This document shows positions 12,812-17,371 of a stretch of DNA of 64,000 nt, one piece after another (position 1 is the stretch's first letter; the number at the start of each line of letters is the position of its first letter). The notes under the pieces were generated by a model. The model saw only the letters and a program-made list of their open reading frames with translations, ran no database searches and was not told the DNA's origin. The position numbers and the translations under genes are program-made. Source of the DNA: a virus (lineage: Duplodnaviria; Heunggongvirae; Uroviricota; Caudoviricetes); IMG/VR virus record IMGVR_UViG_2974602345_000001, positions 13,332 to 77,331 of that record; one strand, written 5' to 3'.

Positions 12812-13303
12812 CTACTTAGTGGACGACTTCATCAGCAGCCGGCAGAGGTCTTCCAGGTTGCCGTTGGAGCGGTCCAGGGTCAGCACAGTGCTGCCATCGA
12901 CCTTCACCGATGCGAAGTGCTTATCGACAGTTACCGTGATGTCACCCAGCACGCCGATGACGTGCTGTTCGTGATTCTCCGGGTCAACCTTCTCCAACAT
13001 CTGCTGGAAGGTGCAACCCTGCGACTTGAACGCAACCACAGGCGCTACAGCCGATGGAGGCTCGATGGTCAGGTCGCTGTCGATTGCGCGTACGACGTCC
13101 ATCACAGTTGCGTTGACGAACTTATCAGCGAATTCGTCTGGGATCTCGATGCAGAAATCCTCCTCCAGGCGCATGATGATCTCGATGTTATCGAGCGAGT
13201 CGGTACCCAGTTCGTGGATGGGCTCGAGGATGTTGATCTCATCTGCGTTGAGACCCAGCTGTTCAGCCAGGGCGGCTGTAACCTTGTTCAGTGTTGTGCT
13301 CAT
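12812..13303 (-). CDS. acyl carrier protein domain fused to a C-terminal domain of unknown function
   Basis: LAEQLG...ELGTDSLDNIEIIMRLEEDFCIEIPDE: ACP signature with the phosphopantetheine Ser in DSL. Confidence 0.85.
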   Translation of the reverse strand: MSTTLNKVTAALAEQLGLNADEINILEPIHELGTDSLDNIEIIMRLEEDFCIEIPDEFADKFVNATVMDVVRAIDSDLTIEPPSAVAPVVAFKSQGCTFQQMLEKVDPENHEQHVIGVLGDITVTVDKHFASVKVDGSTVLTLDRSNGNLEDLCRLLMKSSTK

Positions 13304-13364
13304 GCCTATCATTCCTTATCAGTCGTAGAAAAGGCCCACAGTGTGGGCCTTTTGCAGGGGCGTC

Positions 13365-13562
13365 TTACTTCTTCTTGCCATTGCCTTTGGTGTTACCACC
13401 TTTGGCTGGCGCAGGAGCAGCAGGGGCCTCACGGCGCGACATCTCACGCTTGCGCTTCTTGGCAGTGGCGCCGACGCGCGAACGTGGGTGACGACCGCTT
13501 GGAGTAGCAGGGCGTTCGAATGGCTTGAACTCGCCGGAAGCATCGTTGGTGCGGATGGTCAT
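13365..13562 (-). CDS. small basic hypothetical protein
   Basis: MTIRTNDASG..., Lys/Arg-rich; GGAG SD. Confidence 0.5.
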   Translation of the reverse strand: MTIRTNDASGEFKPFERPATPSGRHPRSRVGATAKKRKREMSRREAPAAPAPAKGGNTKGNGKKK

Positions 13563-13579
13563 CTGTGTATCTCCAGTTT

Positions 13580-13744
13580 TCAATGTTGATCAGTTTCAGG
13601 TTTGGTTTCTTGCGACTCTACCGCAGCAGGTTCATCCTGCTTAGGCTTGTTCTTGCCGAAGATGGCATCCCAGTTGTCTGCGTAAGCTTTGCTGTTCACG
13701 CGGGTCTGGATGCTGTCGCCGGTTACATCGTTCTTTGCAGCCAT
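13580..13744 (-). CDS. small hypothetical protein (54 aa, below the ORF track cutoff)
   Basis: MAAKNDVTGDSIQTRVNSKAYADNWDAIFGK..., a motif common in T4-like small proteins. Confidence 0.6.
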   Translation of the reverse strand: MAAKNDVTGDSIQTRVNSKAYADNWDAIFGKNKPKQDEPAAVESQETKPETDQH

Positions 13745-13772
13745 CTACTTCTCTACTTCAGTTAACACGATT

Positions 13773-13863
13773 TGGCGGTGTCATAGAGATTCGAACTCTA
13801 GGGCAGGTCTCCCCCACCTACGGTTTTCAAGACCGTCGCCATCGACCACTCGGCCATGACACC
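13773..13863 (-). tRNA. tRNA-Ser(UGA)
   Basis: Cloverleaf with long variable arm, anticodon loop CT-TGA-AA, encoded CCA. Confidence 0.95.
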
Positions 13864-13870
13864 TTAAACT

Positions 13871-13987
13871 GTATGCAGCGGAGGGAGTTGAACCCTCAGT
13901 TCTAAGTCTTAATCCCACCGTGGGCGCAGCGTGTTGCAGAGCTAAGCCGTTGGCCTCCCGTCGAACAACGGCTAGCTTCACACTGCG
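13871..13987 (-). ncRNA. tRNA-like structured RNA (acceptor + T arm, non-tRNA body)
   Basis: GCAGTG/CGCTGC stem, T arm GAGGG-TTCAACT-CCCTC, internal hairpin AGCCGTTG/CAACGGCT. Confidence 0.5.
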
Positions 13988-14031
13988 TCAGGAATTGAAC
14001 CTGATACTTTCACCGGAAACTGCAAACCCTG

Positions 14032-14496
14032 TTACAAGCACAACCCTTCACCACGAAGGTTACTGCGGATGCGCATGAGAATCTCACCCAACTTGTTCTT
14101 GCCAACCAGGTTACCATTGGCGTCACGCACCATACCCCAGTACTTATCGCCCCAGTAGTTCAGTTCGACAAGCTTGCGGTTGCCTGTAGCAAGCAACAGC
14201 TTCTTCAGGTCTTCGTTCTGCTCGAACTTAGCCAGAACGATTTGGTACATGAAATCGTCCTTCAAGTGCTCCCAGTTGAAGCGGACAGGAACCTTCCGAC
14301 CAAGGCGCTTGGCTTCACCTGGCGTTTCCAGTGCAGCAAACTCAACCCACACATCTTGGCCATCAACCTTCATGGCCTGGTAGGCGTGTTCCGAAGTTGG
14401 CCAGTTGATACCTTTGTACACCAACGGCGCTTCGAAGAAGTTGCTGAGGAAAGCAAACTCCTGGAAGAAGCCGAGGATGTCATCATTTGGTGCCAT
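14032..14496 (-). CDS. NADAR (YbiA/T4 gp30.3-like) ADP-ribosylhydrolase family protein
   Basis: FLSNFF...WPTSEHAYQAMK...AKRLGRKV...AKFEQN..L...LLATG...D.YWG...GKNKLGEILMRIR. Confidence 0.9.
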   Translation of the reverse strand: MAPNDDILGFFQEFAFLSNFFEAPLVYKGINWPTSEHAYQAMKVDGQDVWVEFAALETPGEAKRLGRKVPVRFNWEHLKDDFMYQIVLAKFEQNEDLKKLLLATGNRKLVELNYWGDKYWGMVRDANGNLVGKNKLGEILMRIRSNLRGEGLCL

Positions 14497-14515
14497 ACGT
14501 TACCTCTTCACGAAA

Positions 14516-14591
14516 TGGGACGCCAGGTAGGAGTCGAACCTACAACCAACGGATTTGGAATCCGCCATTCTGCCAATTGAACTACTGACGT
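14516..14591 (-). tRNA. tRNA-Trp(CCA)
   Basis: 76-nt cloverleaf, loop TT-CCA-AA, CCA end. Confidence 0.93.
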
Positions 14592-14597
14592 ATATTA

Positions 14598-14678
14598 GGT
14601 GGGCCAATAAGGGAATCGAACCCTCGACCTTGCATGTATGGTGTTAACCCCATGGCATGAAAGCCAACCATGTAGCCC
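14598..14678 (-). pseudogene. degenerate tRNA / tRNA-like element
   Basis: T arm GAGGG-TTCGATT-CCCTT and GGGCTA/TGGCCC acceptor, but no proper D arm, irregular anticodon arm, ends ACCT. Confidence 0.5.
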
Positions 14679-14684
14679 GTTGAC

Positions 14685-14760
14685 TGGTGCCGGCAGCAGG
14701 AATCGAACCCGCGACATCTTGCTTACAAGGCAAGCGCTCTACCATCTGAGCTATACCGGC
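14685..14760 (-). tRNA. tRNA-Thr(UGU)
   Basis: 76-nt cloverleaf, loop CT-TGT-AA, CCA end. Confidence 0.95.
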
Positions 14761-14770
14761 GTGTAACTGT

Positions 14771-15112
14771 TTATGGGCGGATAATGTACAAGCTGATATC
14801 CGACCCAGTGGTGACAAGCGTTTCGTTGCCACGCTTGACCATGTCGATCATGCAGTTCTTGAGCTCCAGCGAACCTGGCCATGGGCACTCAAAGGTGTTC
14901 TCCCAAGCAGCCTTGATGCGTTCCATCCGTTGTGCATGATCCGCTTTGATCAGCTCCATTGTCTCGTAGACGCTGGTGGCATCACCGACGAAGTCTGTGG
15001 AAGATACGTCAGCGTTGAAAGTCATTTCCGAATAGTAGATCTTCACTTGGTGTGTCCTGTGTACGTTGTCTATGCGGCGTATTGTAGAGCGGTACGCCGC
15101 CGATGTAAACAC
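14771..15112 (-). CDS. hypothetical protein
   Basis: 113 aa ORF in the tRNA region; start uncertain. Confidence 0.5.
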   Translation of the reverse strand: MFTSAAYRSTIRRIDNVHRTHQVKIYYSEMTFNADVSSTDFVGDATSVYETMELIKADHAQRMERIKAAWENTFECPWPGSLELKNCMIDMVKRGNETLVTTGSDISLYIIRP

Positions 15113-15117
15113 TTCTT

Positions 15118-15438
15118 TTAAAACTTCATGTCCGCGAGGTAACTACCTTCTTGAAGGACGGTGTAGATGACCGTCTCATCGCTCACTTCAGAGTGAACGA
15201 ACACTATGTTGCGAACCTTCGAGATCCTCACCTTGCGACCATGCTTGACGCACAGCGCATTGTAACGACCTGGACACTGGCGAAGCGCGAAGTCAACAGA
15301 CTTGGCTTCACGGAACAACTTGCGAAGCATGTAGGCTTCGTTACCGCCCCTGAAAATCTCAGGGTTGAACTGAAGACGGAAGCGCTCTCTGAAGCGCTGT
15401 TTGGCATGAGCCGTTACCTTGATCATCACTGTCATCAC
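15118..15438 (-). CDS. hypothetical protein (HAKQRFRER motif)
   Basis: IKVTAHAKQRFRERF N-terminal motif seen in many phage small proteins. Confidence 0.6.
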   Translation of the reverse strand: MMTVMIKVTAHAKQRFRERFRLQFNPEIFRGGNEAYMLRKLFREAKSVDFALRQCPGRYNALCVKHGRKVRISKVRNIVFVHSEVSDETVIYTVLQEGSYLADMKF

Positions 15439-15598
15439 CTAAACGTTGAAGCTCATCAAATACCAATTTGCGACTTTGCTGACGCTCGATGCTCGCAGTG
15501 AGCTTCTTGGTGAACGGACCTGGGATCGCATGGCTCAACGCACGCTTACCCCAGTACTCACAATGACCACCTTTGGAGCCTCTTACACTGCGCGACAT
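15359..15598 (-). CDS. small basic hypothetical protein
   Basis: MSRSVRGSKGGHCEYWGKR...; AGGGA SD; overlaps the next ORF in another frame. Confidence 0.45.
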   Translation of the reverse strand: MSRSVRGSKGGHCEYWGKRALSHAIPGPFTKKLTASIERQQSRKLVFDELQRLGDDSDDQGNGSCQTALQRALPSSVQP

Positions 15599-15808
15599 AT
15601 CGACGTCCCTATACTGAATTCAATTGGCAGTTTTGAAGCATGCCAAGGCTTATCGGTTGGCGATTTACCGCTGCTTGAGCTTACCACAGCCCACTTTACA
15701 CCGTGCGGTTTGGTGGCCATGCACTACCGAGCTCGGCATGGCTGTTCTCATCACTGTTTGGGCCACTGCATGCAGTGTTAGGCCGGTGATGACTCGGGAA
15801 CTAATCGG

Positions 15809-15911
15809 TTCAGTGTAGAGCGCTTTAACCTTATGCGTAAGCTATCAGCCCTGTTAGATAGGCGGGCCTTCCGAGACAAGGGAGTTGAACCCAAGTTCTC
15901 TCTACACTGAA
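15809..15911 (-). ncRNA. candidate structured RNA closed by a 12-bp helix and containing a T-loop motif
   Basis: TTCAGTGTAGAG 15809-15820 / CTCTACACTGAA 15900-15911; GGG-TTCAACT-CCC inside. Confidence 0.45.
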
Positions 15912-15913
15912 TA

Positions 15914-15990
15914 TGGTGGGACGCCTGTGATTCGAACACAGGACCCTCGGCTTAAAAGGCCGATACTCTAACCAACTGAGTTAGCGTCCC
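15914..15990 (-). tRNA. tRNA-Lys(UUU)
   Basis: Cloverleaf, loop CT-TTT-AA, CCA end. Confidence 0.95.
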
Positions 15991-15995
15991 AAAAC

Positions 15996-16071
15996 TGGTC
16001 TCGGTAGCTGGTCTCGAACCAACGGCCTCTTGCTCCCAAAGCAAGCGCTCTACCAACTGAGCTACACCGAG
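15996..16071 (-). tRNA. tRNA-Pro(UGG)
   Basis: Cloverleaf, loop TT-TGG-GA, CCA end. Confidence 0.95.
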
Positions 16072-16082
16072 TGAAAAAGGGG

Positions 16083-16275
16083 GTGCAGTGGTGCGCTTCT
16101 ACGCCAAAGGGAAGTTCAGCCTTACCGTCTCCGGGGTGCCTCTCTACTATCCGCAACAGTGTGCTAACCGTGCTGCCTTACCTACCATGGTGGTAGATAG
16201 GTTATAGTCACATGCTCTGTTACTTCGTCCCACTCTTTAAAGGATGGCTGCTTCTAAGCCTACCTTCCACTGCAC
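16083..16275 (-). ncRNA. 23S rRNA GTPase-associated-centre (L11-binding domain) mimic RNA with internal insertion
   Basis: Minus strand: GTGCAGTGG-AAGGTAGGCTTAGAAGCAGCCATCCTTTAAAGAGTG-[~125 nt]-GGCGTAGAAGCGCA-CCACTGCAC; matches recalled 23S nt ~1054-1107. Confidence 0.8.
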
Positions 16276-16321
16276 TTACAAGGTTGACCGGGACAGAGTT
16301 CACTGTCTCTTCAGTCGAAAT

Positions 16322-16397
16322 TGGCTCCCACTCCTGGACTCGAACCAGGGACCACACGGTTAACAGCCGTGCGCTCTACCAACTGAGCTAAGTGGGA
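16322..16397 (-). tRNA. tRNA-Asn(GUU)
   Basis: 76-nt cloverleaf, loop CT-GTT-AA, CCA end. Confidence 0.95.
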
Positions 16398-16403
16398 ACA
16401 AAC

Positions 16404-16482
16404 TGGTTGCGAGAGCAGGATTTGAACCTGCGATCTCCGGGTTATGAGCCCAGCGAGGACGACCAAGCTCCTCTATCTCGCT
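16404..16482 (-). tRNA. tRNA-fMet(CAU), initiator type
   Basis: Loop CT-CAT-AA, three G-C pairs in the anticodon stem, unpaired 1:72, CCA end. Confidence 0.88.
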
Positions 16483-16489
16483 ACAACAG

Positions 16490-16582
16490 GGTGAAGCATG
16501 CTGTCTCGAACAGCCTAGTGCACCAACTGCGTCAAATTCGAACGGTTGCCCGTTTGCCCTATTCTGCCGCCTTGCTTGCTTC
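16490..16582 (-). ncRNA. tRNA-like structured RNA (acceptor + T arm)
   Basis: GAAGCA/TGCTTC stem + ACC, T arm GCTG-TTCGAGA-CAGC, AACGG-GCAA-CCGTT hairpin; no anticodon arm. Confidence 0.45.
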
Positions 16583-16587
16583 GTAAT

Positions 16588-16674
16588 TGGTGGGCGCTCC
16601 AGGATTCGAACCTGGGATGTATCGTTGTACGGGGTTACAGCCCGCCGTCTTCGACCACTCGACTTCAAACGCCC
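16588..16674 (-). tRNA. tRNA-Tyr(GUA)
   Basis: Cloverleaf with long variable arm, loop CT-GTA-AC, CCA end. Confidence 0.93.
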
Positions 16675-16695
16675 TGAACTTTGTTTCTGTACGTT

Positions 16696-16703
16696 TATTT
16701 AGT
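16696..16703 (-). promoter_or_regulatory. late promoter ACTAAATA heading the tRNA cluster
   Basis: Recurrent octamer, 22 nt upstream of tRNA-Tyr. Confidence 0.65.
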
Positions 16704-16780
16704 GTAGTCTAATTTCTAATGAGGTGGTTCTACAACAAATTTTTAAACTCTTTTGTTATAAAACCACCATCATCTACTTA

Positions 16781-16948
16781 TCAAGCCTGGTCGTATTCGT
16801 CCTGGGCTCGACGAGCTTCTTCATCGTCGAAGTCATCGCCAGGTTCACACGCCATGTCGCCTTTGCGAACCATCTCTTCTGCAACACGTTCGAACGGGTC
16901 GATAGAGCGAGTTGGTTCGTAGTCAGGGTTTGCAAAACGGCTACGCAT
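16781..16948 (-). CDS. small acidic hypothetical protein (55 aa)
   Basis: MRSRFANPDYEPTRSIDPFERVAEEM...; GGAG SD. Confidence 0.5.
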   Translation of the reverse strand: MRSRFANPDYEPTRSIDPFERVAEEMVRKGDMACEPGDDFDDEEARRAQDEYDQA

Positions 16949-16957
16949 GGCGAGCTC

Positions 16958-17371
16958 CTACTTAGCGAAGTGGTTCTTCAACAGTGCCGAAGTGGTCTTG
17001 CCATCGTACTGACCGGCGACGTTGGCCTTCAGCCACTTCATGGCATCTGCCATGTTAGTGATGCCGTTCTGCTGGATGCGCATGATGATCTGATCATCGG
17101 TCAGCTGCTTGGGCGCATAGTTGTTCAGCATCGACCCGAGGAAGAAGCTTTCTTTCTCCAGCTTTTCAGTAGGAGCCAGCTTCAGGCACTCATCAACGCC
17201 AGCCTTCATCTTGCGGATGATCTGGATGACAGTTGCGTCATCAACAGCCTTGCCCAGGCGTTCACACTCACCGATAACCAGGGTCATCAGATCGTAGGCG
17301 GTCTTCAGGTGGCCGTCTTTGCGCAGGCGCGCAGTTTCACGCGACTGTTTGATCTCTTCAAGCAGCGACAT
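16958..17371 (-). CDS. GatB/YqeY-domain protein
   Basis: Helical; IIRKM...E......YAPKQLTDDQI...M..AMK.LK....GQYDGK matches the YqeY pattern. Confidence 0.8.
   Translation of the reverse strand: MSLLEEIKQSRETARLRKDGHLKTAYDLMTLVIGECERLGKAVDDATVIQIIRKMKAGVDECLKLAPTEKLEKESFFLGSMLNNYAPKQLTDDQIIMRIQQNGITNMADAMKWLKANVAGQYDGKTTSALLKNHFAK

Follow-up and report, generated by a model that had tools for sequence, protein, structure and literature searches.

A family of phage RNAs resembling the uL11-binding domain of 23S rRNA

Introduction

We analysed 64,000 nucleotides of the Caudoviricetes record IMGVR_UViG_2974602345_000001 of IMG/VR (positions 13,332 to 77,331 of that record). This stretch is called the window, and coordinates without a locus name refer to it. 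At 16083-16275 on its minus strand, flanked by tRNA-Asn and tRNA-Pro, lies a 193-nt non-coding RNA (ncRNA) gene. The ends of this element rebuild the segment 1054-1105 of 23S rRNA, i.e. the end of helix 42 (H42), H43 and H44, around a structured insert of 123 nt. The element belongs to a large phage family across which selection maintains the rRNA fold. Comparative sequence analysis marks it as a structural mimic of the uL11-binding domain that is under selection.

The original is the GTPase-associated centre of 23S rRNA (E. coli 1051-1108, the 58-nt uL11/thiostrepton fragment). The phage RNA has the same secondary structure, near-identical H43 and H44 sequences and the same tertiary signatures: U1060/A1088, 1082-1086, G1071.(G1091-C1100), C1072.(C1092-G1099) and G1093.A1098. 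As in minimal laboratory constructs of the centre, its terminal helix is free to vary (PMC1802607). In contrast to the rRNA centre, the phage RNA is a free-standing gene in tRNA arrays with its own closing helix of 8-11 bp. Furthermore, an extra arm between 1090 and 1091 and a UUUR linker are invariably present, and the phage RNA is relaxed at 1067/1068/1070 and 1096/1097. In the searchable full-text literature we found no description of this family; a conserved 15-mer was met only in a nuclear magnetic resonance study of L11. We are also not aware of a published viral RNA acting in trans that reproduces an entire functional domain of rRNA. The phage GTPase-associated-centre mimic RNA is an undescribed family, defined here by the covariance model R1.

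Results

The element in the window and its likeness to 23S rRNA

Read on the minus strand the parts are arranged as GUGCAGUGG-AAGGUAGGCUUAGAAGCAGCCAUCCUUUAAAGAGU-insert-UUUG-GCGUAGAAGCGCA-CCACUGCAC. Sequence and nucleotide numbering of a first-pass annotation, made by a model from the letters, agreed with ours to the base: A1061 is 16261, A1067 is 16255, the pair G1058-C1080 is 16264/16242, U1082/A1086 is 16240/16236 and A1095 is 16100. The features are:

16083-16275, minus strand: complete ncRNA gene, 193 nt, both arms of the closing helix included
16267-16275, minus strand: closing helix 5' arm, GUGCAGUGG, pairing with 16083-16091; the last two G are rRNA 1054-1055
16241-16266, minus strand: H43 copy (rRNA 1056-1081), loop UUAGAAG, with A1067 at 16255
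16232-16240, minus strand: junction UUAAAGAGU (rRNA 1082-1090) with the tertiary pair U1082-A1086
16109-16231, minus strand: insert of 'type A', 123 nt, between U1090 and G1091
16228-16231 with 16109-16112, minus strand: insert closing stem, GGGA with UCCC
16217-16223 with 16153-16159, minus strand: insert helix P2
16191-16199 with 16179-16187, minus strand: insert hairpin
16113-16145, minus strand: P3 module, 33 nt (AG..GGC-ACC-CCG GAGA CGG-UAAG-GCU..CU)
16105-16108, minus strand: linker UUUG, insert to H44
16092-16104, minus strand: H44 copy (rRNA 1091-1103), GCG-UAGA-AGC-GCA, with A1095 at 16100
16083-16091, minus strand: closing helix 3' arm, CCACUGCAC

The inner pairs of the closing helix are GG/CC (16267-16268 with 16090-16091), and A1056 (16266) stands opposite A1103 (16092). 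In the junction A1088 has U1060 (16262) as its partner, and U1090 pairs with G1101 (16094). At first pass an insert of about 125 nt had been described. The split by a structured insert is real; its precise length is 123 nt (16109-16231), its site is U1090/G1091, and it is followed by the conserved UUUG linker. The 9-bp helix which was thought to replace H42 wholly is also present. The replacement is not complete, however, because the two innermost pairs of this outer helix are homologous to rRNA 1054-1105 and 1055-1104; the G/A1056-A1103 mismatch is kept as well.

The likeness to rRNA was seen in several comparisons. In a blastn search of GenBank phage records, element bases 13-42/45 matched genuine 23S rRNA entries with 93-94% identity. 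In a local alignment with Salmonella 23S rRNA the 5' half fell on the GTPase-associated centre with 28 of 30 bases identical. R1 was built from 54 phage members, with no rRNA in the training set, and it aligned from end to end with the true centre in each of three 23S rRNAs (57.9-63.6 bits, E ~1e-15). The alignment of the halves to 23S rRNA, proposed at first pass as a check, is borne out by these results. The window element itself scored 115.6 bits with R1 and has every feature of the R1 family: the inner closing pairs, the R1056.A1103 mismatch, H43 and junction, the insert stem, the UUUR linker and H44. At 16232-16266 it shows the family's H43 loop UURRARGC and junction U/C/A1082-UAA-A/G/U1086-GAGU. 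The 3' signature follows at 16092-16231, i.e. a 3-4-bp insert stem after U1090, UUUR and an H44 copy GCGUANNAGC-R-CA.

A large viral family

IMG/VR was searched with one 3'-half and one 5'-half pattern, and the family size given here is a lower bound. The two scans matched at least about 190 loci, nearly all of which contain a family member. Scripts picked at least 135 elements (116 distinct) with both halves and a complementary closing helix. This filter required at least 6 of 8 outer pairs, so that outer-helix pairing is inflated; it has no bearing on the inner helices, the tertiary pair or the model-based sets. R1 found a member in 67/67 loci newly fetched by the second scan and gave 94 matches across the 100 loci of the first.

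About ten GenBank phages, mostly large or jumbo phages of Gammaproteobacteria, also carry a member. One is a full-length relative in Pseudomonas phage UNO-G1W1, with 87.6% identity over all 193 nt (blastn, E 3e-61); apart from the element, the surrounding 6 kb of the window have no similarity to this phage. Both halves, with different inserts, occur in the Pseudomonas phages Astolliot and Milchi, in Aeromonas phage 4_4572 and in the jumbo phages XacN1, GAP32 and CBB, whose hosts are Xanthomonas, Cronobacter and Pectobacterium, respectively. Erwinia phage Kaldavass and Xanthomonas phage XbC2 gave a 5'-half match only. A blastn search with an AT-rich member (L026) matched no named phage.

Cellular genomes were scanned with one gapped pattern that covers about a quarter of the family. 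Among 185,579 prokaryotic species genomes there were ten matches. Nine were true members, mostly on contigs of metagenome bins and several with tRNA arrays, and the tenth was ordinary 23S rRNA. Because so few true members are found in so many prokaryotic genomes, mostly on metagenome-bin contigs, the family is essentially viral.

Element-bearing loci sometimes hold two copies. Tandem pairs are present in Astolliot (L002, 1163-1478), in Milchi (L004, 1164-1479) and in locus L167 (3850-4082 and 4103-4332); the upstream copies of Astolliot and Milchi are divergent and score 23 and 17.6 bits with R1. The degenerate member in locus L176 (941-998 and downstream) may be a decaying copy, with an intact 5' half, an eroded H44 copy (GGUAAUAGUA) and, after it, sequence very rich in AT.

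Covariation and conservation of the rRNA fold

In alignment A1 (54 sequences) 96.8% of the cells in the proposed helices were paired, compared with 76% for shuffled partners and 38-57% for slid partners. Changes on both sides of a pair numbered 259, compared with 67.5 in controls. The individual helices were examined in the 116 distinct elements. Position 1058-1080 is 100% paired with all six pair types in use, 1057-1081 changes from A-U to C-G, and 1054-1105 and 1055-1104 are 100% paired with G-C/A-U exchanges. The outer closing helix is unconstrained in sequence, and all six standard pair types occur at its outer positions.

Covariation extends to tertiary contacts of the rRNA. The contacts 1082-1086 and the 1072 triple were predicted from rRNA comparisons and later seen in crystal structures. 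In the 116 distinct elements the tertiary pair 1082-1086 covaries as U-A (58), C-G (33) and A-U (11). The form U.(U-A) replaces the triple C1072.(C1092-G1099) in L167 and the related second, upstream copies of Astolliot and Milchi; L154 is a partial case. Taken together, every covariation and invariant-base signature of the uL11-binding 58-nt domain fold is present in the family.

As the search patterns fixed many bases, the conservation of each half was read only from loci found via the other half. In the set not selected on the 5' half the fold residues G1059, U1060, G1071, C1072, A1077, C1079, U1083-A1085 and G1087-U1090 are 98-100% conserved, with U1060 and G1087-U1090 at 99-100%. The exposed H43 loop is looser (A1067 87%, 75/86; G1068 72%; A1070 79%). 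In the same set position 1061 is U in 54, A in 22, G in 7 and C in 3 members. The first-pass proposal that A1061 is a selected stabiliser of the fold is not supported, since this position is variable in the family. In loci found by the 5' half, G1091, C1092, G1093, U1094 and A1095 are each kept in 53-54 of 55 cases (A1095 in 53), and A1098 in 55/55. The tip of H44 varies: 1096 is A in 42 and G in 12 cases, and 1097 is U in 26, C in 24 and A in 5 (n = 55). The resulting loops are GUAAUA, GUAACA, GUAGCA, GUAAAA, GUAGUA and GUAGAA. The linker, read from loci found by the 5' half alone, starts with UUU in 54/55 cases and ends with G (37) or A (18).

Family-specific anatomy, and the question of a captured fragment

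Members were compared with three real 23S rRNAs, from Salmonella, from a Paenibacillus-phage record and from an Anaerolineae genome. Three states are common to all members and missing from these rRNAs: A at position 1101 (G in the window) pairing with U1090, the UUUR linker, and the insert at U1090/G1091. The phage U1090-A1101 is a Watson-Crick pair, whereas the corresponding pair is A-U in Salmonella 23S and U.U in the two others. At 1087-1090 the family has GAGU. Two of the three real 23S rRNAs carry the same variant, and Salmonella has GAAA. With GAGU in the family, GAAA in Salmonella 23S and Gammaproteobacteria as the hosts of the named phages, the element is therefore not a recent capture from the host. 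The shared states point to one ancient origin, after which the family seems to have spread among phages.

No intact member among those analysed lacks the insert, which is 23-396 nt long (median 128). Its closing stem of 3-4 bp is 100/98/92/74% paired over 106 inserts, compared with 62-39% after shuffling. Nine first-scan members have a second hairpin, inserted after A1077. The type-A insert with its P3 module occurs in 27 of 115 distinct elements, the window included. P3 has invariant internal loops and an RNAalifold consensus with compensatory changes; together with the closing stem it is 97.4% paired, compared with 82.4% for shuffled and 28-59% for slid partners. An insert ending of 'type B', AGACCCUUAGAGC, is common to XacN1, GAP32, CBB and several IMG/VR contigs. 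Two ideas about P3 were discarded. The window reads AGUAGAGAGG, reminiscent of a sarcin-ricin loop, yet GAGA is not kept in type-A relatives. A kissing contact of the P3 UAAG with CUUA of the H43 loop was not accompanied by a co-change where U1065 is C.

Might the element not be a functional gene at all, but a captured scrap of host rRNA, an artefact of assembly or contamination, or a pair of rRNA exons around a mobile intron? The local identity to 23S rRNA is high, as such an origin would demand, and some GenBank 'phage' records do hold real rRNA. An example is Paenibacillus phage Pd_22F (locus L007; MZ092003.1, ~82.5-85.5 kb). There, genuine-looking 23S rRNA is present, its centre runs on into normal rRNA and R1 matches it as a 58-nt copy without insert. 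L007 is host DNA or contamination and not a mimic.

The phage elements behave differently. None of the IMG/VR pattern matches listed runs on into normal rRNA sequence. Bacterial LSU rRNA (large subunit; RF02541) had no match in the window at the gathering threshold or at E up to 10, and the flanks on both sides are phage tRNAs. Neither LSU rRNA nor any other Rfam 15 family matched the element's stretch, even at E up to 10; an existing Rfam family, named at first pass as a refuting condition, was not found. The insert as a second piece of rRNA was rejected: its local alignment to the whole 23S scored 21, no better than shuffles (mean 20.9). A group I or II intron or a mobile insertion in rRNA exons was rejected because no intron family matched in 13500-17200 at E up to 10. 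In addition, the inserts span 23-396 nt continuously and are of unrelated types, and the flanks are not rRNA. Compensatory changes are plentiful and members share the derived states named above, with A or G at 1101. These tests refute a non-functional origin, to which we give next to no credence. A selected structural mimic rather than a captured scrap, as proposed at first pass, is supported by the family-wide covariation, which includes tertiary contacts of the rRNA.

One cellular sequence, L205 from an Anaerolineae metagenome-assembled genome, was considered because its 23S rRNA seemed to have a natural insertion where the mimic has its insert. It is ordinary 23S rRNA with a chance match downstream. 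Separately, a group I intron (Rfam, 74 bits) splits the 23S rRNA of L205 at 369-1058; it is unrelated to the mimic element.

Genomic context and expression signals

The source genome, a 158-kb IMG/VR virus record rated 100% complete, belongs to a distant T4-like virus, whose gp41-type helicase shares no more than 48% identity with known ones. The genome has a single copy of the element, within an array whose eight tRNA genes all lie on the minus strand. Its immediate neighbours are:

16322-16397, minus strand: tRNA-Asn(GUU), ARAGORN, Rfam tRNA 70.5 bits, 46 nt upstream of the element
15996-16071, minus strand: tRNA-Pro(UGG), ARAGORN, Rfam tRNA 64.7 bits, 11 nt downstream of the element

These flanks confirm the site given at first pass, from which tRNA processing could release the RNA. 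Across the family tRNA genes lie within 5 kb in 90 of 134 loci, and without exception the 576 tRNAs in this range share the strand of the element. A tRNA at a distance of at most 300 nt, often just 3-13 nt, is seen in 73 loci. No kind of tRNA was preferred as neighbour; adjacent tRNAs were of 13-14 kinds on each side. Co-orientation and proximity are the pattern predicted by co-transcription and release via tRNA processing.

About a third of the loci have no nearby tRNA. In XacN1 (L005, 1455-1800) a stand-alone element adjoins a 2'-5' RNA ligase gene, with a promoter-like TTGACT-17-TAATAT directly upstream. Downstream, inspection by eye showed a U-run with a long GC hairpin. Some copies appear to be independent genes, because of the tRNA-less loci and because of the promoter-like site and downstream hairpin of XacN1. 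A U-tract after the closing helix as terminator of stand-alone copies was uninformative (23/60, compared with 8/28 in copies followed by a tRNA).

An all-against-all blastp comparison of 2,260 open reading frames from 134 loci yielded no protein cluster in more than eight loci, and no uL11 gene was found in the window's phage genome. Because neither a recurrent neighbour protein family nor a phage uL11 was found, a constant partner would be host-derived, or the RNA acts alone. Three protein genes of the window lie in or beside the array:

14032-14496, minus strand: NADAR ADP-ribosyl-hydrolase-type gene inside the tRNA array, Pfam E 6.5e-31
12812-13312, minus strand: ACP-like protein (PP-binding, E 2.6e-10), bordering the array
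16958-17371, minus strand: YqeY-like protein (E 4.5e-07), bordering the array

A homologous NADAR gene (L030, 376-798) ends 6 nt before the mimic element of that locus, so that NADAR neighbours occur in 2 of 134 loci. A phmmer search near other members with the window proteins found this one further NADAR and no homologues of the ACP-like or YqeY-like protein. The link to NADAR, YqeY and ACP is anecdotal.

Two further RNA-like stretches were seen in the array. At 14592-14684 (minus strand), between tRNA-Thr and tRNA-Trp, lies a 93-nt tRNA-like RNA in which a single long central arm accompanies an acceptor-like stem and a canonical T arm (GGGUUCGAUUCCC). It was not called by ARAGORN; Rfam gave a weak tRNA-Sec match (17.8 bits at 14601-14678). 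At 15800-15913 (minus strand), directly downstream of tRNA-Lys, 114 nt have a cloverleaf-like fold (z = -2.07) and no Rfam match. An 11-bp closing helix surrounds three hairpins, the first of which is T-arm-like (GGGUUCAACUCCC). From its modelled fold this could be a permuted or degenerate tRNA-like RNA.

Discussion

What might an rRNA domain do off the ribosome?

The roles suggested at first pass were titration of uL11 with a block of RelA, a decoy for toxins, methylases or thiopeptides, and recruitment via the insert. The explanation we favour, with our confidence evenly divided, is that of a processed, stable RNA which takes up the fold of the stalk base and, free of the ribosome, binds host uL11. 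We infer that the RNA is transcribed together with the phage tRNA array and excised by tRNA processing. It would then fold into the compact tertiary structure of the GTPase-associated centre, with its own closing helix and a variable extra arm at U1090/G1091. The free RNA could bind the C-terminal domain of host uL11 in the infected cell, because uL11 recognises the tertiary fold and not the surrounding ribosome. According to PMC6239185, uL11 binding requires the tertiary fold, the domain reaches this fold autonomously, and position 1061 varies in nature. L11 is bound tightly by a 60-nt laboratory construct that has the U1061A change and in which the terminal pairs were swapped (PMC1802607). 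The phage RNA can be seen as a natural version of this construct. Such an off-ribosome copy of the stalk base would withdraw uL11, and possibly other readers of the same surface, from ribosomes. Loss of uL11 from ribosomes would in turn blunt the activation of RelA, which is the most speculative step.

Several points weigh against this proposal. In the 5' strand of H44 the chain is broken by the insert between 1090 and 1091, which could affect uL11 binding. A pure sponge would not account for conserved insert modules such as the type-A P3. At A1067 and A1095 conservation is still 87-96%; to our knowledge uL11 binding does not depend on these bases, and their conservation hints at another ligand, i.e. 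a GTPase, a toxin or a tRNA elbow. Lastly, ribosomes probably outnumber the phage RNA, so that stripping of uL11 may be inefficient.

If a toxin were the ligand, the RNA might be a decoy substrate. It would soak up an anti-phage effector, such as an ADP-ribosyltransferase, nuclease or methylase, that attacks the 23S centre, and so protect the host ribosomes which the phage needs, comparable to phage tRNAs that offset anticodon nucleases. A precedent for a toxin at this site is Tre23, which ADP-ribosylates H44 at 1095-1098 (PMC8661411). The conservation of the exposed A1067 and A1095 would fit, as would the location in tRNA arrays and the NADAR gene, which is in the window's array and directly upstream of the element in L030. 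Yet NADAR adjacency is limited to the 2 of 134 loci, and 1096/1097, the tip of the H44 loop, are free to vary. Of 8 copies in named phages, 7 have an H44 loop other than the GUAAUA of Salmonella 23S, a loop which the hosts of these phages presumably share. Against a catalytic enzyme a stoichiometric decoy is weak, and we know of no anti-phage system aimed at the GTPase-associated centre. We regard a decoy as unlikely, though worth keeping in mind.

If, on the other hand, a translation factor were the ligand, the RNA, with or without uL11, would trap EF-G, IF2, RF3, RelA or tRNA elbows and so retune translation or the stringent response. GTPases, RelA and tRNA elbows normally touch A1067 and A1095, the two conserved bases, and EF-G reportedly binds oligonucleotide mimics of the domain (ascribed to Munishkin and Wool, 1997). 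However, productive factor binding on ribosomes also requires the sarcin-ricin loop and bL12, and the aligned inserts contain no conserved sarcin-ricin-like element. The H43 loop, with A1067 at 87%, G1068 at 72% and A1070 at 79%, is relaxed compared with the fold residues, and trapping of elongation factors would harm phage translation, too. A factor trap is improbable in our view.

The insert permits a different reading, in which the rRNA-like fold with uL11 would be a nuclease-resistant handle, a chassis for cargo, and the variable insert would do the work with modules for each partner. Every intact member analysed has an insert, from 23 to 396 nt, and covarying modules recur, i.e. the type-A P3 and the 'type B' ending. 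But some members have a plain hairpin of 23-41 nt only, and a universal insert type is absent. The sole family-wide constant is the rRNA-like core with tertiary contacts under visible selection. We consider this role of the insert rather unlikely. The off-ribosome uL11 binder is retained as our preferred explanation.

Relation to known systems

Ribosomal-protein mRNA leaders likewise imitate an rRNA protein site outside the ribosome: the L10 leader (RF00557) is bound by L10(L12)4, and the L11 operon has an L1 site. The L10 leader imitates part of the same stalk region, according to a statement in PMC10931766 that cites Iben and Draper (2008). Those leaders are cis-acting, belong to host operons and copy local features only, whereas the phage RNA would act in trans, has no downstream ribosomal-protein gene and copies a whole tertiary domain. 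No Rfam leader family matched the element, and its neighbours are tRNAs, NADAR and a YqeY-like protein.

The T4 species 1 and 2 RNAs, GOLLD and ROOL are likewise structured ncRNAs beside or within phage tRNA clusters; their function has been approached only recently, if at all, and structures of GOLLD and ROOL are available (PMC12286853). They have no sequence or structural relation to the element, none copies a functional rRNA domain, and at the element Rfam gave no GOLLD or ROOL match. Stand-alone rRNA pieces are also known from fragmented organellar ribosomes, and the uL11-binding domain is among them. In apicomplexan mitochondria, for example, separate short RNAs are homologous to E. coli rRNA (PMC10948144). 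Such pieces assemble a ribosome without contiguous rRNA. The ribosome of the phage's host already has the centre, and incorporation of the phage RNA is implausible.

Significance

Several cultured phages, i.e. UNO-G1W1, Astolliot, Milchi, 4_4572, XacN1, GAP32 and CBB, carry the element and the question of its role is therefore directly testable. Should uL11, or another factor reading this site, prove to be bound by the RNA, it would be a new phage route to translation, to the stringent response or to ribosome-directed immunity. The family would also provide a natural series of more than 100 variants of a classic RNA-folding model, in which the bases essential for the fold are marked, as is a site that tolerates an extra helix. 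A still wider notion, which for now we hold as possible and somewhat doubtful, is that large lytic phages of many bacterial phyla use a free copy of the uL11- and GTPase-docking domain as a counter-measure. It may strip or occupy uL11 and so keep RelA from raising (p)ppGpp in the infected cell, or it may absorb an as yet unknown class of immune effectors and toxins that strike this rRNA site, and the insert arms may tune the choice of partner.

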